NCBI GenBank assembly: GCA_038325765.1
Contig: JBBQJI010000013.1
Location: 66,522-130,521 of the forward strand
Source of the DNA: Nannocystales bacterium
GTDB taxonomy: Bacteria > Myxococcota_A > Polyangia > Nannocystales > Nannocystaceae
DNA length: 64,000 nt
Direction: 5' to 3'
Shown here: in pieces, positions 13,211 to 62,210 of the stretch
Layout of the letters: every line of letters begins with the position of its first letter
How positions within the stretch are numbered: the stretch's first letter is position 1
The notes under the pieces: model-generated
What the model saw: only the letters and a program-made list of their open reading frames with translations
What the model was told of the DNA's origin: nothing
The model's database searches: none
Position numbers and translations under genes: made by a program

Positions 13211-13252
13211 CGTGATCAGCCCGTGATCAGCCCGTGATCAGCCCGTGATCAG
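13211..13252. repeat. 11-bp tandem repeat (cgtgatcagcc) x3.8
   Basis: Direct reading of the sequence. Each unit carries the palindrome TGATCA. It lies in the convergent gap between the rhomboid and yggX genes and is followed by a 10-bp duplication aggcgcga(ct/tc). Confidence 0.9.
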
Positions 13253-21717: not shown

Positions 21718-21930
21718 GCCGCACGCACGTCGATGATGGTGGGCGTGCCACCCAGCGGTGGCAAGCCAAGCGGCCGCTGCGGGCCGCTTGGCCCACCGGC
21801 GGGGCGCGGAATCTCGGGCTCGACGCCGCCCGTGGCGCTCCCACCGGCGTGAGCTTCACGGCGTCGCTGCGGCGCCCCAAGGCTTGGCCTGGAGACGACT
21901 TTTTGGCACAAGCTGCATCGGACGGGGTGC

Positions 21931-21967
21931 CCCGCGTAGAGTTCCCCCGCGTAGAGTTCCCCCGCGA
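21931..21967. repeat. 15-bp tandem repeat (cccgcgtagagttcc) x2.4 upstream of murC
   Basis: Direct reading of the sequence. It ends 37 nt before the murC ATG. Confidence 0.9.
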
Positions 21968-24334: not shown

Positions 24335-25282
24335 CTACAGGCTCGTCGGCGGGCCCTGGCACTGCAGCGCGTCGGTCGGTGCGCAAAACGGCATCGCCTC
24401 GGTGCAGTTCAACCCCGGGGCGCAGCGATCGCGATCGAACACGCACACGACACCCTCCGCGATCGGCGGGCGGCAGCGGCCGCCATAATCGCACCACGTG
24501 CTCGCGCACTCGAGATCGCTGGCACAGCCATCGCCGTCGGTCTTGAGTGCGGCGCAGATCGACGGGTCGACCGAGGCGTCGCACCATGCGTCGCCGGAGC
24601 AGAGCGACCCCATCGCGCACGGGAGCCCGGGCTCCGGCAGGGGCGTGCACCGTCCGGTGCTCCGCGCGTCGCAGAACAGCCCATCGTCGCAGTCGCGCAG
24701 GACGTGGAAGCCCGGACCCTCGAGCGAGCACGGCTCGCCTGTGCCCTCGCGGAGGCAGGCCGGCGCGCAGACATCGACTGGATCGCCGTCGTAGGCCTCG
24801 CGGGTGATGCAGACCAGCCCCTGATCGCAGTCGCTGAACGCGCCATGGTGCCGGCATGGCCCGTCCTGCGGGACCGCGCCGTGGTAGGCGAAGCAGTCGG
24901 AGCAGGTCTCGAGCCGCGCGGGATCCCTCGAGCAGCCCAGCGCCGCGATGTCGTCGATCCGGGCGTCGACGCACGACGGATCGTAGGTCAGTCCGGCCGT
25001 GACCACCTCGAGCTGTTCGCCGAGGAGATCCCCAGACAGGTTCGCGACGCACGCCTCCTCGCTGGCGAACCCCGCGGGATCGAGGCACTGACACGCGAAC
25101 AGCTCGGCGCAGTAGTGGACCGCGACCTCGCGCGAGGCATCACGCTCGAAGATCGGGGGATCGGCTTGGCACGCCGCGATCGAGGCGAGCACGCCGAGAT
25201 ACAGCAGGAGCGGTGGGCGCCGGGGCGGTGGGCGTCGGGGCGGTGGGGTGAGGATCATGATTGCGCGGCGTGGACTCGCCAT
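24335..25282 (-). CDS. Cys-rich lipoprotein with about five G-x-x-C...C-x-x-G-L-x-C...C repeats (Dickkopf/colipase-like knots)
   Basis: ATG at 25282. Signal LLLYLGVLASIAAC (lipobox). Repeats include GEPCSLEGPGFHVLRDCDDGLFCDARSTGRCTP and GDGCASDLECASTWCDYGGRCRP. Confidence 0.65.
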   Translation of the reverse strand: MASPRRAIMILTPPPRRPPPRRPPLLLYLGVLASIAACQADPPIFERDASREVAVHYCAELFACQCLDPAGFASEEACVANLSGDLLGEQLEVVTAGLTYDPSCVDARIDDIAALGCSRDPARLETCSDCFAYHGAVPQDGPCRHHGAFSDCDQGLVCITREAYDGDPVDVCAPACLREGTGEPCSLEGPGFHVLRDCDDGLFCDARSTGRCTPLPEPGLPCAMGSLCSGDAWCDASVDPSICAALKTDGDGCASDLECASTWCDYGGRCRPPIAEGVVCVFDRDRCAPGLNCTEAMPFCAPTDALQCQGPPTSL

Positions 25283-27141: not shown

Positions 27142-30009
<2,868 letters not shown>

Positions 30010-41721: not shown

Positions 41722-42366
41722 ATGGACCTGCGAAAAGCCCTGGTGTGCATCGCCGCACTCGCGGGCGCGTGCTCGTTCTTCGAGGAGCTGCAGTCGGCCG
41801 AGTCGGCCGAGGACGGCGGCTCGGGCACCGGCAACGGCACCGGCAACGCGAGCAGCGGCAACGCGAGCAGCGGCACTTCCGACGGTGACGCTCCGTGCAC
41901 GATCGCCAGCCACGATCGCTGCCTAAATCAGGACACCTTGCAGACGTGCGACGAGCCCAGCGGCGAGGTCACGGTGTCGTCGTGCAACGCGCTGTGCACG
42001 GGCACGCTCAACTTCAGCTGCGTGATCGCCAGCGCCGAGGTCCAGCACGGCTGCTGGTGCGTCGTCCCTGGCGAGATCGAGCGGCTCAACTGCACCGAGC
42101 TCGAGGAGTGCCTGCTCGCGTGCTCGGCCGCGACCACCACCGCGTGCGCGGACGCCTGCTTCGATCGCACCGACGCCGGCACCATCCGCACCTACGGAGC
42201 GCTGGTCGCGTGCGCGCACCAGGGCTGCGACGACGGCTGCCGCGAGAGCCCCGAGGGGTGCTCTGCGTGCATCTCGACGGCCATCGCATCGGGCACCGGC
42301 GACTGCGCCCTCGAGCGGTCGGTGTGCGATGCCGATGCCCCGACCGACCCGTGGTTCCCGGAGTAA
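41722..42366 (+). CDS. Cys-rich lipoprotein
   Basis: ATG at 41722. Signal ALVCIAALAGAC (lipobox), a G/S/N/T linker, and about 24 Cys in 160 aa. Confidence 0.6.
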   Translation: MDLRKALVCIAALAGACSFFEELQSAESAEDGGSGTGNGTGNASSGNASSGTSDGDAPCTIASHDRCLNQDTLQTCDEPSGEVTVSSCNALCTGTLNFSCVIASAEVQHGCWCVVPGEIERLNCTELEECLLACSAATTTACADACFDRTDAGTIRTYGALVACAHQGCDDGCRESPEGCSACISTAIASGTGDCALERSVCDADAPTDPWFPE

Positions 42367-44942: not shown

Positions 44943-46114
44943 CGCCGCCGCGCACGACGCTCGCCGCGGCACGCCGAATCGTGGTGAAGCTGGGCACGCG
45001 CGTGGTCACACACGACGGCATCGAGCTCGCCGCCGGTCGCGTCCACGGACTGGTCGAAGAGCTCGCGCGGTGGCGCCGTCGCGGGCTCGAGGTGGTGCTG
45101 GTCTCGAGCGGTGCGGTCGGCATGGGCATGCGCGCGCTCGCCCTGCCCGAGCGCCCGCAGTCGCTGGGTCTGCGCCAGGCCTGCGCGGCGGTGGGCCAGG
45201 GCCATCTCATGGGCCTGTACACCCAGGCATTCGCGCAGCTCGGCGTCACCGCGGCGCAGGTGCTGCTCACCCAAGATGATCTCGCCGATCGCGATCGGGC
45301 GCTGTGCGTGCGCACCACCTTGATGCGCCTGCTCGAGCTCGGCGCCCTGCCGATCCTGAACGAGAACGACAGCGTCAGCGTGCGCGAGTTGGTGACGGTG
45401 CGCATCGCCGACGGCGGTCAGGCGCCCGAGGTCGCGTTCGGTGACAACGACGGCCTGTCGGCCCTGGTCGCCCGCGCCCTCGATGCCGACCTGCTGATCC
45501 TGCTGACCGACGTGGATGGCCTGTACACCGCCAACCCCAGCGTCGATCCCGGCGCCACGCGGATCCCAGCCCTGGTCGGCATCGGCGGCGACGACGTCGC
45601 CCTCACCGGCGGCACCAGCACCGGGGGCACCGGCGGCATGGCGAGCAAGCTCGAGGCCGCACGATTGGTGACCGAGCACGGCATCCCGGCGGTCATCTGC
45701 AGCGGCGACACCCACAACGTGCTCGATCGGGTGCTCGCCGGCGACGACGTCGGCACCATCGTCTGGCCGTCGGCGCCCAGGCCGGCCCGGCGACGCACCA
45801 TCGCCCACGCGCCGCGCACCGGTGCACTCGTCGTCAACGACGGCGCTCTCGCGGCGCTGGTCGATCGCAAGGCGTCGCTGCTGCCGGTCGGAGTGCTCGT
45901 CGTCGAGGGCGCCTTCGAGCGTGGCGACGTCGTCGAGATCCGCGATCGATCCGGCCGCGTGTTCGGCCGCGGCCTGGTCAACTACGACGCCGCGGCCGCC
46001 CGCGCGCTGGCGGGCCACAATAGCGCCGAGATCGACGCGATCCTCGGCTATCGCGGCTACGATGCACTGATCACGCGCGACAACCTCGTGCTCACGGCGG
46101 GGGATCGCAAGTAG
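44939..46114 (+). CDS. proB: Glutamate 5-kinase with PUA domain
   Basis: RIVVKLGTRVVT, VVLVSSGAVGMG, ENDSVS, FGDNDGLSA, and a C-terminal PUA segment (GDVVEIRD...GRGLVNY). Start proposed at GTG 44939; the N-terminal extension of ORF 44333.. is rejected. Confidence 0.88.
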   Translation: MTPPRTTLAAARRIVVKLGTRVVTHDGIELAAGRVHGLVEELARWRRRGLEVVLVSSGAVGMGMRALALPERPQSLGLRQACAAVGQGHLMGLYTQAFAQLGVTAAQVLLTQDDLADRDRALCVRTTLMRLLELGALPILNENDSVSVRELVTVRIADGGQAPEVAFGDNDGLSALVARALDADLLILLTDVDGLYTANPSVDPGATRIPALVGIGGDDVALTGGTSTGGTGGMASKLEAARLVTEHGIPAVICSGDTHNVLDRVLAGDDVGTIVWPSAPRPARRRTIAHAPRTGALVVNDGALAALVDRKASLLPVGVLVVEGAFERGDVVEIRDRSGRVFGRGLVNYDAAAARALAGHNSAEIDAILGYRGYDALITRDNLVLTAGDRK

Positions 46115-46125
46115 GAGCAGGGGCG

Positions 46126-47436
46126 ATGGACGACAGACACGAGGCGATCGCACAGGCGGCCCGGGCCGCGCGCCGGGCGGGTTGGATCCTCGGCCAGATC
46201 GGCGGCCCCGAGCGCCGCCAGATCCTGCTGGCGATGGGCGACCTGCTCGAGCGACCCGATCTGCGCGGCGCCGTACTGCGGGCCAACGCCCTCGATGTCG
46301 AGGTCGCCGAGGCCGCCCGTCTTCGCGGTGAGTTCGGCCAGGCCCTCGTCGACCGCCTGGTGCTCGACGAGCGCAAGCTCGCGGGCGTGATCGACGGCCT
46401 GCGCCAGCTCGCGTCGCAGGCCGATCCGCTCGGCAAGGTCGCGGTCGACCGCGACCTGGACGATGGCCTACACCTGCGCCGCGTCGCCTGCCCGCTCGGC
46501 GTCGTGGCGGTGGTCTTCGAGGCCCGCCCCGACGCGGTGGTGCAGATCGCCGGGCTCGCCGTGCGCAGCGGCAACGCGGTGGTGCTCAAGGGTGGGCGCG
46601 AGGCCGCCCGCACCAACGCGGCGCTGGTCGAGATCCTGCGCCGCGCCGTGGCCGACCAGGGCTTCGATCCGGGCGCGCTGGTCCTGCTCGAGGATCGCGC
46701 CGACGTCGCCGTCATGCTCACGCTCGAGCGCGACATCGATCTCGTGGTCGCGCGCGGATCGTCGGAGTTCGTCCGCCACATCCGCGAAGTCAGCCGCATC
46801 CCCGTGCTCGCCCACGCCGAGGGCGTGTGTCACCTCGTGCTGCACGGCAGCGCCGATCCGACGATGGCCGCGCGCATCGCCGTCGACGCCAAGTGTGCCT
46901 ACCCGGCGGCCTGCAACGCGATCGAGACCCTGCTGTGGATGCCCGGGGCCGAGGCTGCGCTCGATGCATGCGTCGCCGCGCTGCTGGCCCAGGGCGTCGA
47001 GCTGCGGGCATGCGCAGAGACCCTCGCCCGCCATCCCCAACTCGTCGCCGCGGGCGCCGGCGATTTCGGCCACGAGTTCGGCGCGAAGATCCTCGCCATC
47101 GCCCGCACGGGCGATCTCGCCGGCGCGCTCGCGCACGTCGAGCAGCACGGCTCGGGCCACACCGACGCGATCATCGCCGACGACGACACGGCGGCGGCCG
47201 AGTTCCTCGCCCGCGTCGACGCGGCCTGCGTGTTCCACAACGCGAGCACGCGCTTTGCCGACGGCTATCGGTTCGGGCTCGGCGCCGAGGTCGGCATCAG
47301 CACCACCAAACTCCATGCCCGTGGCCCGGTCGGCGCCGAGGGGCTGGTCACCTATCGCTGGTTGTTGCGCGGCACCGGACAGATCGCCGGCGACTACGGC
47401 CCCGGACTGCGGCGGTTCAAGCACCGCGACCGCTGA
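46126..47436 (+). CDS. proA: Gamma-glutamyl phosphate reductase
   Basis: Aldehyde-dehydrogenase-like protein with VVLKGGREA, catalytic-Cys region AACNAIETLL, and GHTDAI. Confidence 0.93.
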   Translation: MDDRHEAIAQAARAARRAGWILGQIGGPERRQILLAMGDLLERPDLRGAVLRANALDVEVAEAARLRGEFGQALVDRLVLDERKLAGVIDGLRQLASQADPLGKVAVDRDLDDGLHLRRVACPLGVVAVVFEARPDAVVQIAGLAVRSGNAVVLKGGREAARTNAALVEILRRAVADQGFDPGALVLLEDRADVAVMLTLERDIDLVVARGSSEFVRHIREVSRIPVLAHAEGVCHLVLHGSADPTMAARIAVDAKCAYPAACNAIETLLWMPGAEAALDACVAALLAQGVELRACAETLARHPQLVAAGAGDFGHEFGAKILAIARTGDLAGALAHVEQHGSGHTDAIIADDDTAAAEFLARVDAACVFHNASTRFADGYRFGLGAEVGISTTKLHARGPVGAEGLVTYRWLLRGTGQIAGDYGPGLRRFKHRDR

Positions 47437-47438
47437 GA

Positions 47439-47690
47439 GAGCGACAGCGACAGCGACTGGGAGGGGGAAGGTTCCGCCGGGCTTTGCCCGGCGGAAGGGG
47501 GACCGGGCCGGTCCCCCAGAAGGACGGAGCGACAGCGACTGGAAGGGGCAAGGTTCCGCCGGGCTTTGCCCGGTGGAAGGGCGACCGGGCCGGTCCCCCA
47601 GAAGGACGGAGCGACAGCGACTGGGAGGGGCAAGGTTCCGCCGGGCTTTGCCCGGTGGAAGGGGGACCGGGCCGGTCCCCCAGAAGGACG
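47439..47690. repeat. Three tandem 82-88 bp REP-like units, each with two GC hairpins
   Basis: Units at 47439-47526, 47527-47608 and 47609-47690. Each contains ttccgccgggc-ttt-gcccggcggaa and gggggaccgg-g-ccggtccccc. The array starts 3 nt after the proA stop. A degenerate fourth segment with hairpin ccgcggaggc-gaa-gcccccgcgg follows, to about 47750. Confidence 0.9.
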
Positions 47691-47771
47691 GAGCCGAGGA
47701 GCGCAGCGACGGAGGGAGCGTCGGGCCGCGGAGGCGAAGCCCCCGCGGTGCCCGTGTCCACCCGCCCCGCG

Positions 47772-48140
47772 TTACGTGGGCAGCACCTCGGTGATCCGCA
47801 GGTTGGATCCCGACGTGCTCGGGTTGTGCCGCTCGACGTACGACTGCAGCTGCCGCTGCGCGGCACTGAAGGCGTCCCGTAGGGCGATGCCCATGTCCTC
47901 GTGCTCGGAGATCTGCGGATCGCGGGTCACGACGATCTCGTCACCAGGGACGGAGAGCTCGATCCGCACGTGGTACGTGTTGCCCTTGTGGTGATGCTTG
48001 TGGGGCGACTCGACGACCACCCGGCAGCCGGTGATCTTGTCGAAGAACTTGTCGAGCTTCGCGGCTTTCGCGCGAATCCGTTCTTCGATCTCGTCGGTGC
48101 GGACGACATTGCGGAACGTGATCTCGAGTGGCAGCTTCAT
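47772..48140 (-). CDS. hpf: Ribosome hibernation promoting factor / RaiA (short HPF type)
   Basis: MKLPLEITFRNV...EIEERIRAKAAKLDKFFDKITGCRVVVE...YHVRIELSVPG fits the YfiA/HPF S30AE fold pattern. Start at ATG 48140. Confidence 0.85.
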   Translation of the reverse strand: MKLPLEITFRNVVRTDEIEERIRAKAAKLDKFFDKITGCRVVVESPHKHHHKGNTYHVRIELSVPGDEIVVTRDPQISEHEDMGIALRDAFSAAQRQLQSYVERHNPSTSGSNLRITEVLPT

Positions 48141-48383
48141 TGGCGTTCCTTTCACATCGAGTGCTCGCGCCCACGGTGCGAAGGCACCGCATCACGTCGA
48201 GCCTCGTCATGGTTACACGGCAGGGGCAACCAGGTTTCATGATGAACCATGGTGGTGGCCATCTGCCAGGGAGAAACGTGCGCAGCGGTTGCAGAAGTTT
48301 CTGCGCCGCCGCGGCGTCGTTGCAAAACGGTGTTCGTTCGGCCAGCTGCATCACCGACGCGGCACTGCGTGGGGGGGTTGGGG

Positions 48384-48431
48384 GGCCGTGGCGGGTCGGG
48401 CCGTGGCGGGTCGGGCCGTGGCGGGTCGGGC
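48384..48431. repeat. 15-bp tandem repeat (ggccgtggcgggtcg) x3.2
   Basis: Direct reading of the sequence. It lies in the 394-bp non-coding stretch between hpf and the HAD hydrolase gene. Confidence 0.9.
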
Positions 48432-48534
48432 CCGGGCGCCGCGCGTCAGCGCGCGGGCGGGACGGCGGGGCCCGGGCGTGTCGACCCGCCCGCCCGCATC
48501 GGCCCGACATAGGCCCTGCCCAGCGTCTGGGCCG

Positions 48535-49119
48535 CTACAGGAGCCCGCGCGCGGCCAGGTCCGCGGTCAGGCTGGCGGCGTCGACGAACCGCACTGCGTC
48601 CATGCCGACCGCCCGCGCACCCGCGCAGTTGGCCTCCCGATCGTCCACGAACAGACACGCATCCGGCGCGACCCCGAGCCGCGAGAGCACCACCTCGTAG
48701 GCGGCGCGATCGGGCTTTCGCGCCCCCGTCTCACACGACACGAACGTCCATGGCACCCACCGCGAGAGCTCGAGCTTGGCCTCGATTAGTCGGTACCACG
48801 GCGGGTAGTTCGACAGCGCGTGCATGGCAACGTCGCGACGCAGCAGCGCATCGAGCACGGCGTCGATGCCCGGCAGCAGCACATAGGCGTCGGTCATCGC
48901 CCGCTTGAGACCGTCGACGTCGAGGCGGCGACCGTCGGCGAAGAACTGCTGCGCCAGGCCCTCCTCGTCGATGTGTCCGAGTTCGAACGACTCCCACGCG
49001 CTGGGGTGCTTGCGCGCCACCAACGTGCGAAGATCGGTGCCGAAGAACCGCGGTACCTCGACGAAGAACGGGTCGTGCACCAACGTGCCCATCACGTCGA
49101 ACAGCACGACCTCGATCAT
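48535..49119 (-). CDS. HAD-superfamily hydrolase (haloacid-dehalogenase-like subfamily)
   Basis: Motif I LFDVMGTL, motif II ALSN, and motif III/IV K...FVDD. 194 aa. Confidence 0.8.
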   Translation of the reverse strand: MIEVVLFDVMGTLVHDPFFVEVPRFFGTDLRTLVARKHPSAWESFELGHIDEEGLAQQFFADGRRLDVDGLKRAMTDAYVLLPGIDAVLDALLRRDVAMHALSNYPPWYRLIEAKLELSRWVPWTFVSCETGARKPDRAAYEVVLSRLGVAPDACLFVDDREANCAGARAVGMDAVRFVDAASLTADLAARGLL

Positions 49120-49149
49120 GGCACGACCTCGATCATGGCGTGACCTCGA

Positions 49150-49158
<9 letters not shown>
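49108..49158. repeat. 17-bp tandem repeat x3 spanning the stop/start junction
   Basis: gacctcgatcatggc(ac/gt/gc) at 49108-49124, 49125-49141 and 49142-49158. Each unit carries TCAT, which is ATGA on the minus strand. Confidence 0.92.
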
Positions 49159-50279
<1,121 letters not shown>

Positions 50280-50283
<4 letters not shown>

Positions 50284-50876
50284 GATTCGTCCTCCAACAG
50301 CAATCGTTCAGCGAGGGCGCGGGCGTGATCACCCGGGCCCCACAGTGGTCCACGGAGCTCCCCGGCGGCGACCCGCACCAGGCCGTCGGTCACGATCTGC
50401 AAGAGCGCCGCGCGCACCGGCAGACCGGCGCGCACGATGCCCTGCCCCTGCGCGCACACGAATCGCTCGACGAGATCGACCAGCGGCACGACCTGCTCGA
50501 GCAGGATCGCGGCCCCCGGTCCGGTGCCGTCGAGCACCTCGCGCAGCACGATGCGGGCGACGTCGGGCTCGGCCTCGATGAACTCTAGATAGCGATCGAG
50601 CGTCGCCCGCAGTCGATCCACGAAGGGTGCGGGCTGCGAGATCGTCGCGGTGAGTGCCGCCGCCAGATTGCCGAAGCAGCGCTCGACGGCGCGGGCGTAC
50701 AGCTCTTCTTTGGTGGCGAAGTGGTACAGCAGCGACGGGCGCGTGATGCCGGCGCGCGCGGCGATGTCGGCGAGGGTCGCGGGGCCGAAGCCTGCGGCGG
50801 CGAACTCCGCCCGCGCCGCGTCCAAGATCCGCTCGGGCGTGGCGGTCGCGTGGGCGCTCGCGGGGGGCCGTCCCAT
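50280..50876 (-). CDS. TetR-family transcriptional regulator
   Basis: ATG at 50876. The HTH is ERILDAARAEFAAAGFGPATLADIAARAGITRPSLLYHFATKEEL. Its stop overlaps the oxygenase ATG (ATGA). Confidence 0.88.
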
Positions 50877-50888
50877 GCAGGAGATCGT

Positions 50889-50908
50889 AATCGACCCACG
50901 GGTAGATT
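50889..50908. promoter_or_regulatory. Imperfect 20-bp palindrome upstream of the TetR gene (candidate operator)
   Basis: AATCGACCC-AC-GGGTAGATT has 16 of 20 positions symmetric and lies 13 nt upstream of the TetR ATG. Confidence 0.4.
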
Positions 50909-50986
50909 TGCAAGGGCGTGCCCGGACCTGCGGGCGCGGTGGAGCCCGAGCCGAGGCCGCCCGCCGCGGGCTGCTAGCCTGGGCCC

Positions 50987-51511
50987 GTGGCCGGACTTCG
51001 TCAGGGGGTGCGCACGCTGGTGACGCAGGCGGGCACGCCGGGCGGCATCGCGGGCGGTGTGGCGCTCGGCCTGTCGCTGTCGCTGGTCCCGATCCCCTTC
51101 GCGGGGATGTTCCTGGCCTTGGCCCTCGCGCCGCTGCTGCGGCTGAACCTACCGGCCACCTACGTCGGCACCGCGATCGTGAACCCGCTATCGGGGGTTT
51201 TCTTCTATTCGGCCGAACTGTGGATCGGCATGTGGCTCCTCGATCGACCGGCGCCGACGTTCGCGACCCTGCGCGCGCTCGATGCCGGTGGATGGTTCGC
51301 AACGCTCCGCGACATGCTCGGGCCGTTCGTGCTCGGTGCCGCGGTGCTGTGCGCCGCCAGCGTGACGATCGTCTACCCGCTGGTCTACGCCGCGGTGCAC
51401 CGCTGGCGCCGCGGGACGAGGCGCCGAAACGACGACGGCGCCGACCCGCGCACGCAGGCCGACGCCGATTCCGGGCGCACCGAAGCGCCCCCCCGTGTGC
51501 GCACGGACTAG
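50987..51511 (+). CDS. DUF2062-family membrane protein
   Basis: GIAGGVALGLSLSLVPIPFAGMFLALALAPLLRLNLPATYVGTAIVNPL is typical of DUF2062. Confidence 0.7.
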   Translation: MAGLRQGVRTLVTQAGTPGGIAGGVALGLSLSLVPIPFAGMFLALALAPLLRLNLPATYVGTAIVNPLSGVFFYSAELWIGMWLLDRPAPTFATLRALDAGGWFATLRDMLGPFVLGAAVLCAASVTIVYPLVYAAVHRWRRGTRRRNDDGADPRTQADADSGRTEAPPRVRTD

Positions 51512-52911
51512 CGGCGGGCGCGGCGGCGCGCCACGCCGAACGCCATCATGCCGAGCAGGCCGAAGGCCGCGCCGCTGCGATCGCCGTCGGTGGTGCAGCT
51601 ACAGCCGCCACCGTCGTCGTCGGCGCCGGCGGTATCGTCGGGCGGACCGTCGATGCCCGTGCTCGACTCGTCGCCACCATCGCCACCGTCGCCGTTGTCG
51701 TCGTTGCCGTCGCCACCCGAGGTGTCCGCAACCCCGCTCTCGCCCGAGCCACCCTCGACCGTGATGGTGGCGGTGACGGTCTCGGTGACATTGCCCGCGA
51801 GATCCGAGGCCTCGAAGGTGATCAGGAATTCACCGCCGAGCGCGCCGGCCGGTGCCAGCTCCGTAGCGCCGTAGTCACCGCCCTCGACCTGGAAGTACGG
51901 GATGCCGGTGCCCGCGAACTCGCGCTCGCAGATGCCGTTGTGCGACTTGCACACGCTGCCGTCGCCATTGCTGTCGAACTCCAGGAAGTCCGGCGAGTCA
52001 TTGGTGATGGTCCAGCGCACGAACACCAGGCCCGAGTCATCGGTGACGGTCGCCGTGAGCGGCAGATTGGAGCCCGCCGGCAGCACGATGCCGTCTTCGA
52101 TGCCGATCGCGTCGATGGAGGGCGGCGTGGTGTCCTCGACCACGGGGCCCGCACCGTAGACGCCGATGAGCTCGAAGTGGCTGCTGATCTGGTCCTCCTG
52201 ATCGTCACAGTAGCCCTCGTGGTAGAAGCCCGCGCACGCGGCGGGGTTGGACATCCCCTTCTCGTCGAGCGTCGGCACGAAGGTAGAGCACATCTCCTGG
52301 AACTCGACCGAGGGCGCCGTGAAATCCGGCGGGTAGAACATCGGATCGTCCGGGTTGTCGTTGTTCTCGAGCCCGGACATGTAGCCGACGGCGATGAGCG
52401 CGGCCATCACCGGATCGGGCGTCACGCAGTTCATCGTGCCGCCGCTGGTGTTGCCAATGTCGTTGCGGTTCGGGCCGTCGCAGTCGATGCGGGCGCCGGC
52501 GCACGTGCGCGACGTCCCCTCGGCGTTCACCTCGTCGCTGGGCAGCACCATCATGTACGGCACGTACTCGGGGGGGCGCGTGCTCGTGACGCGGATGTTG
52601 TAGGGGGCGAGCGCCGTCGTGACACCGCTGACGATGTCGTCGATGTTGGCCGGCGGCGCGTAGTCGCTGGCTTCCGCGAGGCCCGCGAGACAGCCCAGGC
52701 CAGAGTTGTCCGCGCCGCTCTGCGGAAAGGAGCACAGGTCGGCGGGCGTCAGCGGGATCGCCTCGGTGGGGATGTACAGCGTCGACGGCGCGGACTCGTA
52801 GTCGACGGCGCGCGTGGAGTCGGGCTGGCCCTGCAGTCCGCCAGCGTGCGCGACGTTGGCGATCGAGACGAAGGAAGACGCAACGAATAGGACGGCAATG
52901 GATCGCTTCAT
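51508..52911 (-). CDS. Secreted protein with Ig-like domain and MYXO-CTERM sorting tail
   Basis: ATG at 52911. Signal MKRSIAVLFVASSFVSIANVAHA. Acidic G/D linker, then C-terminal GGGCSCTTDGDRSGAAFGLLGMMAFGVARRRARR (GC-x-C, hydrophobic helix, Arg cluster). Confidence 0.75.
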   Translation of the reverse strand: MKRSIAVLFVASSFVSIANVAHAGGLQGQPDSTRAVDYESAPSTLYIPTEAIPLTPADLCSFPQSGADNSGLGCLAGLAEASDYAPPANIDDIVSGVTTALAPYNIRVTSTRPPEYVPYMMVLPSDEVNAEGTSRTCAGARIDCDGPNRNDIGNTSGGTMNCVTPDPVMAALIAVGYMSGLENNDNPDDPMFYPPDFTAPSVEFQEMCSTFVPTLDEKGMSNPAACAGFYHEGYCDDQEDQISSHFELIGVYGAGPVVEDTTPPSIDAIGIEDGIVLPAGSNLPLTATVTDDSGLVFVRWTITNDSPDFLEFDSNGDGSVCKSHNGICEREFAGTGIPYFQVEGGDYGATELAPAGALGGEFLITFEASDLAGNVTETVTATITVEGGSGESGVADTSGGDGNDDNGDGGDGGDESSTGIDGPPDDTAGADDDGGGCSCTTDGDRSGAAFGLLGMMAFGVARRRARR

Positions 52912-55356: not shown

Positions 55357-57425
55357 CAGCGGCCGTCCTTGCCCGGCGTGCCCGGCGTGCCCGGCGTGCC
55401 CGGCGTGCCCGGCGTGCCCGAGGTGGCGGGCGGCGTCGCGGTGCGCCCCGGCAGCGGCGGGGGCACGCCGGCCGCGCGCGGCGCGACGCCCGATGCGGAC
55501 GTCGTGCTCTCGCTGCCCAAGTACTGGTCGATGACCTTCATGACGATCGGCGCGGCAGCGTCGGCACCGGTGCCGCCGTGCTCGACGACGGCGACGACCA
55601 CGATCCGTGGCGCCTCCGCCGGGGCATAGGCGGCGAACCACGCGTGATCTTGCGTGGTGTCCCAACCCTCGATCTCGATGCCGGCCTTGCTGATGTCGCG
55701 GCCGACCTGGGCGGTGCCGGTCTTGCCGGCCACCACGACGCTGCCCAGCCGCTCGCTGTAAGCGGTGCCAGCCTCGTCGTTGACGACGCCGACCAGCCCG
55801 CGGTGGATGCGGGCGCGATCGACCGCATCGATCACCGGCTTGTCGTTGCGCGGCTGCGGCTGGGTCGACAGCACCAGCTTGCCCTCGTTGGTCTCGATGC
55901 GATCGACGAGATACGGCGTGAGCACGAAGCCGCCGTTCGCGATCGCACCGTAGAGCACCGCGAGCTGCATGACGGTGACCTTGACGTTGCCCTGGCCGAT
56001 CGCGCTGTTGAGGCGCACGCCGCCTTGATAGGTGCCCTCGCGCGCCTCGAACTCCTCGGTGGGGATGGTGCCCTTGACCTCACCGTTGATGCCCAAGCCC
56101 GAGCGTTCTCCGAGGCCGAGCACCCGCGCGATCGGGGCCACCCGCTCGAGGCTCAGGGTGCTCTGGACCGCGAGGTTGTAGAAGTACGTGTTGCACGACT
56201 CGACGATCGCGCGCTCGAGGTCGACCGTGCCGTGCACGTGGGTGTCCTTGAAGCGACGACCACCGAACACCAGCGAGCCCGTACACTCGAAATCGGCGTC
56301 GGGATCGAACTCGGGATCCCACAGGGCCGCGAGCGCCGACACGACCTTGTAGGTCGAGCCGGGGAAGAAGTGCTCCTGCACGGTCTTGTCGATGAAGGGC
56401 TTGAGCGGGCTGTCCGACCACTCACGCCACAGCTCCGACGGGATCGGCTGCTCGTAGCGGTTGGGATCCACACCCGGCACCGACACCATCGCCAACACCC
56501 GACCGGTGTCGGCCTCGATCGCGACCACGGCCCCGGCGAGTCGTTCGGACAGCGCCTCGTGGGCGACCCGCTGCAGATCGAGATCGAGGGTGAGATAGAT
56601 GTCCTGTCCCGGGATCGGATCGCGATCAGGCGGCAGCGCGGCGATCGCCTCGGCCGGGGCGTTCGCCACCTCGTGACGCGCGGCGTTGACCACCCGCGAA
56701 CGCGACCCCAAACGCCCCCGCAGGTAGTTCTCCCACTGCCGCTCGATGCCGGTCTGACCCACGCGGTCGCCGGGCCGATACGACAGGTGATCGGAGCGTT
56801 CGAGCGCCTCGCGGCCGATGTTGCCCATGTGACCGGTGACGAACCCCGTCAGCTCGCCCTCGGGATAGTAGCGGCGCGAGCTCTCGCGGATCTCGATCCA
56901 CGGTTCGAGTGAGTCCTGGCGGGCCTCGATGCGGGCGTACTCGTTCCACGTCAGGTTGCGGCGGAGGATCTGGGCATATCGGCCGCGCTCCTCGTCGAGC
57001 CGGAGCTCCTCGAGCTTGGCGATCATCGCGCTGCGATCGACATCGTCGACGAAGTCGAACAGCGACACGAGCAGGTCGCGGGAGCCGTCGTCGATCGGGG
57101 TGCGGAGGCCCTCTTCGGTGGGCACGATGCCGCCGTCCTCGGAGGCTTGGAACCGGGTCCAGGCTGTGACGTACAGCGTGTAGCCCGGGCGGTTGGTCGC
57201 CAGCGAGCGGCCCTTGATGTCGAAGACGCGCCCACGCGGCGCCTCGACGTCGACGACATCCACGAAGTTGCGCTCGGCGCGGCGGGCGTAGTGATCGCCC
57301 TCGAGCACCTGGAGCTGGCACAGCCGCAACATGAGGCCGGCGAACACCGCGAACACGAGCAGGACCATGGCCGAGAACCGCGGCCGCAGCTCCCTCAAAT
57401 CGTCGGTCTGGCGCAGGTCGATCAT
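55356..57425 (-). CDS. mrdA: Penicillin-binding protein 2 (elongasome transpeptidase)
   Basis: ATG at 57425 (MIDLRQ), TM helix, PBP dimerisation domain, and the SxxK (STYK), SxN (SCN) and KTG (KTGTA) motifs. The C-terminal tail has (TPG)x5. Confidence 0.92.
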   Translation of the reverse strand: MIDLRQTDDLRELRPRFSAMVLLVFAVFAGLMLRLCQLQVLEGDHYARRAERNFVDVVDVEAPRGRVFDIKGRSLATNRPGYTLYVTAWTRFQASEDGGIVPTEEGLRTPIDDGSRDLLVSLFDFVDDVDRSAMIAKLEELRLDEERGRYAQILRRNLTWNEYARIEARQDSLEPWIEIRESSRRYYPEGELTGFVTGHMGNIGREALERSDHLSYRPGDRVGQTGIERQWENYLRGRLGSRSRVVNAARHEVANAPAEAIAALPPDRDPIPGQDIYLTLDLDLQRVAHEALSERLAGAVVAIEADTGRVLAMVSVPGVDPNRYEQPIPSELWREWSDSPLKPFIDKTVQEHFFPGSTYKVVSALAALWDPEFDPDADFECTGSLVFGGRRFKDTHVHGTVDLERAIVESCNTYFYNLAVQSTLSLERVAPIARVLGLGERSGLGINGEVKGTIPTEEFEAREGTYQGGVRLNSAIGQGNVKVTVMQLAVLYGAIANGGFVLTPYLVDRIETNEGKLVLSTQPQPRNDKPVIDAVDRARIHRGLVGVVNDEAGTAYSERLGSVVVAGKTGTAQVGRDISKAGIEIEGWDTTQDHAWFAAYAPAEAPRIVVVAVVEHGGTGADAAAPIVMKVIDQYLGSESTTSASGVAPRAAGVPPPLPGRTATPPATSGTPGTPGTPGTPGTPGKDGR
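55371..55415. repeat. 9-bp tandem repeat (gcccggcgt) x5 in the mrdA 3-prime end
   Basis: Direct reading of the sequence. It encodes GTPGTPGTPGTPGTPG at the PBP2 C-terminus. Confidence 0.9.
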
Positions 57426-60398: not shown

Positions 60399-62210
60399 AT
60401 GCTCAACTTCTTTCGTCGCAGCGCGTCGAGCGTGTTCGCGTGGATCATCCTGGGCGTACTCGCGCTCGTGTTCGGCCTCTCCTTCGGACCGGCGAGCGAC
60501 AACCTGTCGTTCGGCACGGGATCGTACGTCAAGGTCCACGGCGAGGGCCTCGGCGACGAGCAGTACCGCTTTCAGGCCAGCCTCATCGATCGCATCGTGC
60601 AGATCCCCAAGGATGCGCGCTACCAGCAGATGATGGGTCTCAAAGAAGAGATCCTCGAGTCGGCGGTGGAGCGCGAGGTCCTCTACGACGCGGGCCGATC
60701 CCTCGGACTCTCGGCGACCGAGGCCGACGCGGAGGAGCTGGTGCTCGCCGGCCAGTTCATCATCTTTGGCGAGACCTTGGATTGGCTCGGAAACCTCGCC
60801 TTCAACTACGACATCTTCACCAAGTCGTTCCTCGCCGGCCTGCAGATCTCGGAGCCCAACTACCTCGACATCCAGCGCCGCGAGCTCCTTGCCCGCACCG
60901 TCCGCGATCTCGTCGCAGCGAGCGTGGTGATCTCCGAGGGCGAGCTGCGGGCGGCGTATGAAGAGGATGCGAACCGGCTCTCGCTGCGCTACGCGCGGTA
61001 CGATGCGCTGGCCTTCGGCGATCTGGTCGACCCCACGCCCGTCGAGGTCACCGCGTGGCGCGAGGGCCACCTCGTTGCGCTGAAGCAGCAGTACGTCAGC
61101 CAGGGCAGCCGCTTCGCGAAGCTTCCCAAGCAGGCGCGCACTCGGATCATCGAGGTGCGCAAGCCCGAGCCCGCGGCCCCCGAGCCCGCGGCCCCCGAGG
61201 ACGCAGACTCCGAGGACGCAGACTCCGAGGACGCAGTCGAAGGCGCCAAGGCGGTCGCCGCACCCGATCTCGCCCGCGCCAACGCGACCATCGGCGGCGC
61301 TCGCTCGCGCATCATCGCCGGCGAGGACTTCCGCGCGCTCGCCCGCGAGGTCTCGCACCATGACAGCGGCATCCGCGGTGGCGAGCTCGGCTGGGTCCCC
61401 GAAGGCACCGGGACCGGCATCGATCCAGCCATCGATGCCCAGCTCGCGACGCTCGAGATCGGTGCCGTCTCGGAGATCATCGAGGGCGACAAGGCGCTGT
61501 ACCTCGTGCTCGTCACGGCGCGGCGAGAGGGCGACATCGACGAGGTGGCCGCACTGCCCGAGCTCGCCGAAGAAGCCGTGCGCCGCAACAAGGGCCGCGT
61601 GCTCGCCCGCGCCGCCGCCGAAGAGGACCTCGCCGCGGTCGCTGCGGGCGCCGCGTTGACGGAGGTGTTCGCCGGCGGCAGCGCGCTCGGTGGCGGCGGC
61701 GGCGGGATCGAGCAGGCGGGCAGCGATGCCCGGCGCAAGGTCCAGCTCGAGGAGACGGGCTCCTTCGCGAAGGGTGCCGCGCCGCCGGGCCTGGGCCAGG
61801 CGCCCGAGGTCCTCGCGGCCGCGTGGCCGGCGACCCCCGACCAGGGCCTGCTCGATCAGGTCTTCGAGATCGGCGACGACGTCGTGCTCGTCGGCCTCGT
61901 CGACAAGTCCGAGGCCAGCGACGTCGGCTTCGCCGAGGTCCGCGCAGATCTGTACCGCGCGATGCTAGAGCGCAAGGGATCGTTGGTGACGTCGCGGTGG
62001 GCGAACCGGCGCTGCGTCGAGGCCAAGGGCCGCGGCGAGATCACCAGCAACGACCGTCGCGTCTCGGCGCTCATGACCTACGACACCAAGGCCGAGGGCA
62101 CCGAAGGCGCCAATCCGCTGCTCGCACCCTACGAGGTCTGCGATCGCGTGGGCAACGGCGGCGGCATGTTGCGGAGGGGATTCGGCGGCGGGCCCGGCGG
62201 CGGCGGTTGA
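60399..62210 (+). CDS. PpiD/SurA-like periplasmic chaperone with parvulin PPIase domain
   Basis: ATG at 60399 (MLNFFRRSASSVFAWIILGVLALVFG membrane anchor). The parvulin segment is FRALAREVSHHDSGIRGGELGWV. Confidence 0.8.
   Translation: MLNFFRRSASSVFAWIILGVLALVFGLSFGPASDNLSFGTGSYVKVHGEGLGDEQYRFQASLIDRIVQIPKDARYQQMMGLKEEILESAVEREVLYDAGRSLGLSATEADAEELVLAGQFIIFGETLDWLGNLAFNYDIFTKSFLAGLQISEPNYLDIQRRELLARTVRDLVAASVVISEGELRAAYEEDANRLSLRYARYDALAFGDLVDPTPVEVTAWREGHLVALKQQYVSQGSRFAKLPKQARTRIIEVRKPEPAAPEPAAPEDADSEDADSEDAVEGAKAVAAPDLARANATIGGARSRIIAGEDFRALAREVSHHDSGIRGGELGWVPEGTGTGIDPAIDAQLATLEIGAVSEIIEGDKALYLVLVTARREGDIDEVAALPELAEEAVRRNKGRVLARAAAEEDLAAVAAGAALTEVFAGGSALGGGGGGIEQAGSDARRKVQLEETGSFAKGAAPPGLGQAPEVLAAAWPATPDQGLLDQVFEIGDDVVLVGLVDKSEASDVGFAEVRADLYRAMLERKGSLVTSRWANRRCVEAKGRGEITSNDRRVSALMTYDTKAEGTEGANPLLAPYEVCDRVGNGGGMLRRGFGGGPGGGG
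61164..61238. repeat. Two adjacent 15-bp tandem duplications inside the PpiD-like gene
   Basis: cccgagcccgcggcc x2.4, then gacgcagactccgag x2.6. They encode PEPAAPEPAAPE and DADSEDADSEDA. Confidence 0.9.

Follow-up and report, generated by a model that had tools for sequence, protein, structure and literature searches.

A 17-nt tandem array on the stop/start junction between a di-iron oxygenase gene and a HAD hydrolase gene in a myxobacterial operon

The operon and the anatomy of the array

The window (the whole stretch of 64,000 nt that was analysed) carries on its minus strand a three-gene operon, in which a gene for a TetR-family regulator is followed by genes for an AurF-like di-iron oxygenase and for a hydrolase of the HAD superfamily. 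The stop codon of the oxygenase gene and the start codon of the hydrolase gene are separated by a short tandem array. The features of this region are, from upstream to downstream:

50280-50825, minus strand: TetR-family regulator gene, first in the tetR-oxygenase-HAD operon (Pfam TetR_N; gene call in L001, a metagenome assembly described below)
49150-50283, minus strand: AurF-like ferritin-type di-iron oxygenase gene, 377 aa (Pfam PF11583, E=1.8e-9)
49104-49165, minus strand: 17-nt tandem array, 3.6 copies (Tandem Repeats Finder, TRF; pattern search with shuffles)
49164-49148, minus strand: copy 0 of the array, GACGTCGCGCCATGATC, degenerate with 2 mismatches, identical with the native 3' end of the oxygenase gene
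49150-49153, minus strand: ATGA junction 1, where the oxygenase TGA (49152-49150) overlaps the ATG of mini-ORF 1; this is the ancestral context
49153-49133, minus strand: mini-ORF 1, MIEVTP* (translation)
49147-49131, minus strand: copy 1, GAGGTCACGCCATGATC, which carries the ACG variant
49133-49136, minus strand: ATGA junction 2, where the TGA of mini-ORF 1 overlaps the ATG of mini-ORF 2
49136-49116, minus strand: mini-ORF 2, MIEVVP* (translation)
49130-49114, minus strand: copy 2, GAGGTCGTGCCATGATC (pattern search)
49116-49119, minus strand: ATGA junction 3, where the TGA of mini-ORF 2 overlaps the HAD ATG (49119)
From 49113 into HAD codons 3-5, minus strand: partial copy 3 (TRF, pattern search)
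48535-49119, minus strand: HAD-superfamily hydrolase gene, 194 aa, product beginning MIEVVLFDVMGT... (Pfam PF00702, E=6e-14)

The operon lies in a conserved neighbourhood. Across a clade of Nannocystaceae-like Myxococcota MAGs the order is a divergent DUF2062 gene, tetR-oxygenase-HAD, an HPF gene and the convergent proA/proB genes. At the upstream junction of the operon the tetR stop overlaps the oxygenase ATG (ATGA, 50280-50283), with a GGAGG 7 nt upstream in the window, and this -4 overlap is present in the window and in every relative checked. The oxygenase itself has 7928 homologues, the closest outgroup being 87% identical.

At the downstream junction the oxygenase gene ends in ...GAC GTC GCG CCA TGA, and the minus strand from 49176 to 49087 reads ...CTG GGC GAA GAC GAC GTC GCG CCA TGA TCGAGGTCACGCC ATGA TCGAGGTCGTGCC ATGA TCGAGGTCGTGCTGTTCGAC... 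TRF reports here a 17-nt period with 3.6 copies, 91% matches and a score of 96. The first-pass annotation had described a 17-nt unit that forms three ATGA junctions and two 6-codon mini-ORFs, an anatomy borne out by the sequence, by TRF and by the translations. Each of the three junctions, taken singly, consists of co-directional ORFs with a stop/start overlap of -4 nt, which is the arrangement of a termination-reinitiation pair. With up to 3 mismatches allowed, the unit GAGGTCGTGCCATGATC occurs three times in the window, every time at the oxygenase/HAD junction (0.29 occurrences expected), and none of 100 shuffled sequences reached three copies.

The length of the unit accounts for this layout. 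Six sense codons and a stop make 21 nt, and subtraction of the 4-nt overlap leaves 17, just as the first-pass annotation had calculated. Because 17 equals 2 mod 3, the ATG of each copy is in frame with the TGA of the next, which yields the two chained 6-codon ORFs. Any duplicated unit that contains an ATGA will chain starts to stops in this way if its length is 2 mod 3, that is, in about one third of cases; a length of 0 mod 3 would instead have given an N-terminally extended HAD protein. The insertion amounts to 34 nt, and the oxygenase and HAD genes themselves are now spaced by +30 nt. Both proteins are unchanged, since the first copy retains the C-terminus and stop of the oxygenase and the last copy the start of HAD, and a change in copy number leaves the reading frame of both as it is. 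The mini-ORFs have no plausible protein function, and it is likely that their only role is to hand the ribosome on.

The third ATG is the genuine start of the hydrolase. There is no in-frame start codon between the oxygenase TGA and this ATG, and the HAD proteins of relatives begin MISCVLFD, MSTVVLFD, MSTIVLFD or MKTVLFD, following the pattern M-x-x-x-V-L-F-D; these N-termini identify the third ATG as the true HAD start. Just downstream, at HAD residues 8-14 (49078-49098), motif I reads FDVMGT, with Met at the position expected for the second catalytic Asp of DxDxT. DVMG is kept in 88 of 120 HAD homologues (P0121-P0240), a conservation that hints that this HAD subfamily is not one of standard phosphatases.

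Occurrence, ancestral state and origin of the array

Repeats carry a general risk of false expansion during sequencing or assembly, and nothing beyond this general risk suggests an artefact here. An exact-protein look-up recovered three further assemblies, from different samples: L001 (JGI metagenome 3300007517), L002 (Logan assembly of SRR19962013) and L163 (JGI 3300048516), which are 99.85%, 100% and 99.82% identical to the window, respectively, all without gaps and all with the same array. All four assemblies, the window included, contain exactly three copies with the ACG variant in copy 1, and they agree base for base across different projects and assemblers. Downstream of the array, at a distance of 10 nt, L001 and L163 differ from the window by a synonymous change (GTT/GTG), so that these two are separate sequences. 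In addition, the array measures 51 nt, which is shorter than a read, and the distinctive ACG variant would not come from an artefactual expansion. The first-pass annotation had named an assembly artefact among the findings that would refute its reading; the agreement of four assemblies from different samples rules this out, leaving it a negligible probability, and the array is real.

We compared the junction in 11 outgroup lineages whose oxygenases are 72-87% identical to that of the window. A single -4 overlap is present in eight of them (L164 and L177, both GTGA; L178/179; L003; L166/167; L169; L173; L176), and in the other three the genes are spaced by +2 nt (L165), +9 nt (L170) and +135 nt (L004). 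No repeat is present at the junction in any of the 11 lineages, in line with the expectation in the first-pass annotation that relatives would carry one copy. Its proposal that the ancestor had one junction, CCATGATCGAGGTC, is thus well supported, with a single -4 overlap in 8 of 11 outgroups and a repeat in none.

The unit itself can be traced to this ancestral junction. It consists of the last two oxygenase codons and the first five HAD codons. In L166 the single junction reads CTCCATGATCTCGTGCGTGCTGTTCGAC, and the stretch homologous to the unit is CCATGATC...GTG; when the unit is written as CCATGATCGAGGTCGTG, it aligns to the single-copy junction of L166, CCATGATCTCGTGCGTG, at 13 of 17 positions. 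Since the unit is homologous to the single-copy junction of the orthologues, it represents local sequence and not an insert. No lineage with an intermediate state of one or two copies was found among the database matches listed. Among these matches the identities of relatives leave a gap from 87% to ~100% for the oxygenase and from 83% to 99% for HAD, and the genome and metagenome scans yielded, among the matches listed, mostly relatives at 72% or less. The missing two-copy intermediate is explained by this lack of any lineage between 87% and ~100% identity in the databases searched.

The reconstructed ancestor offers a candidate seed for the duplication. In it, GACGTCGCGC (oxygenase end) and GAGGTCGTGC (HAD codons 3-6) are identical at 8 of 10 positions and lie exactly 17 nt apart, a microhomology that also explains the extra 0.6 copy in the TRF report. 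This imperfect 10-nt direct repeat probably seeded slipped-strand mispairing, by which a 17-nt segment across the single ATGA of the ancestor would have been duplicated twice. In the most parsimonious history GTCGCGCCATGATCGAG would have been duplicated, then CCATGATCGAGGTCGTG in a shifted register, and one substitution would have changed GCG to ACG; alternatively, a clean triplication may have been followed by two adjacent substitutions. Under either history copy 1 has diverged (ACG vs GTG), and the array is older than the split of the four sampled strains. The mechanism and the order of events are deduced from sequence, and what we observe (head-to-tail local copies, their absence at orthologous sites, and flanking microhomology) is what defines a short tandem duplication derived from slippage.

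The genome around the junction is rich in such repeats. TRF found 21 merged arrays in the 64-kb window. Under strict settings (period 9-30, at least 2.4 copies, at least 90% matches) nine short near-perfect arrays remained, that is, 1.41 per 10 kb as compared with 0.28 in 537 kb of related Myxococcota loci with more than 66% GC, a ~5-fold difference that sets one 64-kb window against heterogeneous loci of 2-6 kb. The nine strict arrays in the window (TRF) are:

13211-13252: period 11 nt
21930-21966: period 15 nt
25210-25247: period 15 nt
29424-29468: period 15 nt
41824-41875: period 15 nt
48383-48432: period 15 nt
49104-49165: period 17 nt, the array at the oxygenase/HAD junction
55370-55490: period 9 nt
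61164-61236: period 15 nt

The high density of arrays points to a mutational origin by slippage. Six of the nine have a 15-nt period, and together they suggest a genome-specific tendency to slippage or duplication with a preferred length of about 11-17 nt. Over all the sequence fetched, periods that are multiples of 3 number 392, as compared with 54 and 42 for the other two classes, and the arrays with other periods lie outside ORFs or at gene ends, as judged from a crude GC3 gene map. This bias is the pattern expected if selection filters a general slippage process, and the 17-nt array owes its survival to a position that does not affect either protein. Within the 0.93 Mb scanned it is the sole array that chains at least three start/stop overlaps at a real gene junction.

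Several other repeats of the window deserve description. The perfect 11-nt array at 13211-13252 (3.8 copies of CGTGATCAGCC) is a formal chain of four GTGA overlaps, 11 being 2 mod 3 as well, and it has the core TGATC in common with the 17-nt unit; we considered it as a second relay and rejected it, because the genes on either side converge and no gene follows it on that strand. The perfect 15-nt array at 48383-48432 (3.3 copies of GGGCCGTGGCGGGTC) lies in the intergenic spacer that runs from the HAD stop (48535) to the HPF start (48155), some 100 nt past HAD. Further downstream, proA and the HPF (Ribosomal_S30AE) gene converge, and the stretch between their 3' ends holds, at 47446-47694, 3.0 copies of an 82-nt unit with 95-100% identity. 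Each 82-nt unit contains two adjacent perfect GC-rich hairpins with stems of 11 and 9 bp (-44 kcal/mol), and it resembles a REP element or a bidirectional terminator. It has no Rfam match, and none of the related loci contains it, their proA-HPF spacer being only ~30-110 nt long.

Translation across the array

The duplication has altered the sequence upstream of the HAD start codon. ATG 1 is preceded by the ancestral type of sequence, GACG-N7-ATG, with no SD-like motif. The other two start codons each have a GAGG in front of them:

49144-49147, minus strand: SD-like GAGG, 7 nt upstream of ATG 2
49127-49130, minus strand: SD-like GAGG created by the duplication, 7 nt upstream of the HAD ATG

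With the canonical anti-SD, which is assumed for this organism, the predicted duplex energies are -3.5 kcal/mol for ATG 1, -7.1 kcal/mol for ATG 2 and -7.8 kcal/mol for the HAD ATG. The spacing in GAGG-N7-ATG equals that in GGAGG-N7-ATG at the tetR-oxygenase ATGA junction, so that this geometry is in ordinary use within the operon.

Published work on coupled gene pairs allows some expectations for the present spacing. In native E. coli pairs a distance of +14 nt costs 40-80% of reinitiation, and hardly any is left at +38 nt or, in Haloferax, at ~20 nt; as for the upstream ORF, its last 15 nt are enough for coupling (Huber et al. 2023, PMC10666635). Of five E. coli pairs, three lost 60-90% of their reinitiation when the SD was removed (Huber et al. 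2019, PMC6728339), and a short ORF can bring ribosomes to the gene coupled to it downstream (review PMC12548453). Given these distance effects, direct reinitiation at HAD, 30 nt from the oxygenase stop, should be poor.

Our analysis therefore suggests that HAD is probably translated via a relay of the mini-ORFs, via the new SD-like motif, or via both. Ribosomes would terminate and reinitiate three times in series, from the oxygenase to MIEVTP, to MIEVVP and to HAD, probably assisted by the GAGG-N7-ATG that each added copy supplies; some independent initiation at ATG 2 and ATG 3 is possible. Both the relay and the function of the SD-like motifs are proposed from the sequence, and the net effect on HAD output could go in either direction.

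Other functions for the array at the RNA level found little to recommend them. In MFE folds the accessibility of the HAD start is 0.43, 0.34 and 0.32 for one, two and three copies, a small difference that offers no indication of mRNA structure as the purpose of the repeat. Positions 46000-52000 gave no Rfam match at E<=1, and we found no internal promoter (in a scan for the sigma-70 consensus only) or terminator at the junction.

Relation to known systems and interpretation of the array

All three junctions are canonical ATGA overlaps, as in the -4 termination-reinitiation pairs described earlier (PMC6728339, PMC10666635), they lie in a co-directional operon, and, like many coupled pairs, junctions 2 and 3 are preceded by an SD-like motif. 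Such pairs are represented in ordinary form by the tetR-oxygenase junction next to them and, in the ancestor, by the oxygenase-HAD junction. What differs here is that the coupling, if it has been kept, must traverse two serial 6-codon ORFs. Upstream ORFs that deliver ribosomes to a downstream gene are also known (review PMC12548453; the iraD uORF, PMC5574718), and the mini-ORFs resemble them in that they likely only hand the ribosome on. The known ones, however, are single, lie in 5' leaders and have initiation signals of their own, whereas the two mini-ORFs have an identical origin, lie between cistrons and are fed by the terminating ribosomes of the upstream gene. In the open-access literature searched we found no precedent for two chained mini-ORFs between cistrons, the nearest being the MIRUs of mycobacteria.

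MIRUs (Supply et al. 1997) are, as summarised in PMC12548453 and PMC3184786, tandem repeats that lie between the genes of operons and carry short ORFs with -4 nt overlaps to the genes on either side, and these overlaps are considered to make the insertion harmless to downstream translation. They have units of 40-100 bp at ~40-50 dispersed loci, apparently mobile with target-site repeats, confined to mycobacteria and strain-variable in copy number. The array studied here has the same layout: it lies inside a conserved operon, and the short ORF of each unit has a -4 nt overlap with the flanking genes or with the unit that follows. This likeness is the argument for a MIRU-like mobile element that inserted at the HAD start codon with its own coupled ORF. 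In other respects the two part ways. The unit is 17 nt long and not 40-100; it is made of oxygenase/HAD junction codons homologous to the single-copy junction of the orthologues, a local duplication as opposed to a foreign insertion at a start codon; in the sequence searched the array is confined to a single locus, with no further copy in the 64-kb window or in 0.93 Mb of related loci, in contrast to a dispersed family; its copy number is invariant at three in four of four assemblies (a small sample with <=0.18% divergence); and the host is a myxobacterium. The array thus fails membership in the MIRU class on four counts (size, dispersal, origin and variability), and a mobile element is rejected on unit size, local origin and the absence of dispersed copies from the sequence searched; we regard that reading as largely refuted and exceedingly improbable.

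A more fitting class for the array is that of tandem duplications derived from slippage, in this case one that by chance lies on a -4 coupling junction. It resembles short VNTRs formed by slipped-strand mispairing in its short head-to-tail unit, its flanking microhomology and its genomic setting, where similar arrays with periods of 9-17 nt are numerous. It differs from such VNTRs in that it coincides exactly with a stop/start overlap and leaves both frames intact with a period that 3 does not divide. The reading that we favour, at a probability of roughly 70%, is that of a lineage-specific duplication of the junction, a tolerated slippage product, nearly neutral or mildly altering expression, across which HAD is most likely translated via the relay, and not a dedicated regulatory device. 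One point against neutrality is that the three copies kept in all four strains could reflect selection for the three-copy state.

The more ambitious reading of the array as a ribosome relay proper, in which the duplicated ATGA and GAGG (HAD codons 3-4) would have kept the genes coupled across a 34-nt insertion that should otherwise put an end to coupling, making it a non-mobile, locally born counterpart of MIRUs, is possible, though not the likelier one. If true, it would indicate one way in which coding sequence can give rise to new ribosome-binding sites and to intergenic repeats that preserve coupling. Still less likely is that the triplication was selected as a putative tuner of the HAD:oxygenase ratio, either downwards through multiplied reinitiation losses or upwards through the new SD-like motif; that the array could tune this ratio had been raised in the first-pass annotation. 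Exactly three copies are found in four of four strains, where two adjacent identical copies should invite slippage, the duplication turns GACG-N7-ATG into GAGG-N7-ATG at the HAD start, and the effects of distance and SD on coupling in the literature are strong (PMC10666635, PMC6728339). Yet the four strains differ by at most 0.18%, so that shared ancestry alone accounts for their common copy number. Moreover, comparable arrays are numerous at neutral sites of the same genome, arithmetic alone would turn about one in three duplications across a junction into a relay, and the accessibility near the HAD start barely shifts between one copy (0.43) and three (0.32).

The same uniformity bears on the suggestion in the first-pass annotation that copy number varies by slippage. 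As a contingency locus of VNTR type the array would switch its copy number frequently, so that HAD expression would differ between members of a population. It contains two adjacent copies that match perfectly, and the genome abounds in short arrays, both of which would suit such a role; MIRU arrays of similar architecture are variable in mycobacteria (PMC3184786). However, we found no copy-number heterogeneity among the four assemblies, which come from different samples and differ by <=0.18% (a small sample): four of four near-identical strains have exactly three copies with the same internal ACG variant, and the suggestion finds no support in these data. High switching is, besides, usually driven by long homogeneous arrays, and there are only three 17-nt copies here, one of them diverged. 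We therefore consider a contingency locus improbable.

It is also conceivable that the selected product is a putative oxygenase-HAD fusion, made by read-through of a single leaky stop. The frame relation behind this idea is real: because 2 x 17 = 34 = 1 mod 3, HAD lies in the oxygenase frame, and the two are parted by one Pro-UGA stop and 10 sense codons (...EDDVAP*SRSRHDRGRAMIEVVLFD; 49087-49176, minus strand), with no other stop in ...EDDVAP*SRSRHDRGRAMIEVV... UGA is the leakiest of the stop codons, and a C-terminal proline slows termination. Against this, an in-frame outcome has a prior of one in three, and we did not identify a read-through-promoting context. The 240 homologues listed for the two proteins include none as long as a fusion, so that a natural fusion was rejected as a candidate and read-through to a selected product appears very improbable.

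The locus offers versions with one, two and three junctions that differ only in the number of 17-mer copies. If the relay works, it would be a natural minimal test of whether post-termination ribosomes need an overlap to reinitiate, and of how much an SD-like motif of 4-5 nt contributes, both of which are debated. It would also mean that an insertion may, by its very make-up, do no harm to the coupled genes that it separates, and that an SD-like site can arise through duplication of coding sequence. If the relay fails, the array is merely one of many slippage duplications in a repeat-prone myxobacterial genome. The array is thus a neat natural construct for the rules of reinitiation, yet most probably a tolerated mutation in a repeat-prone genome.
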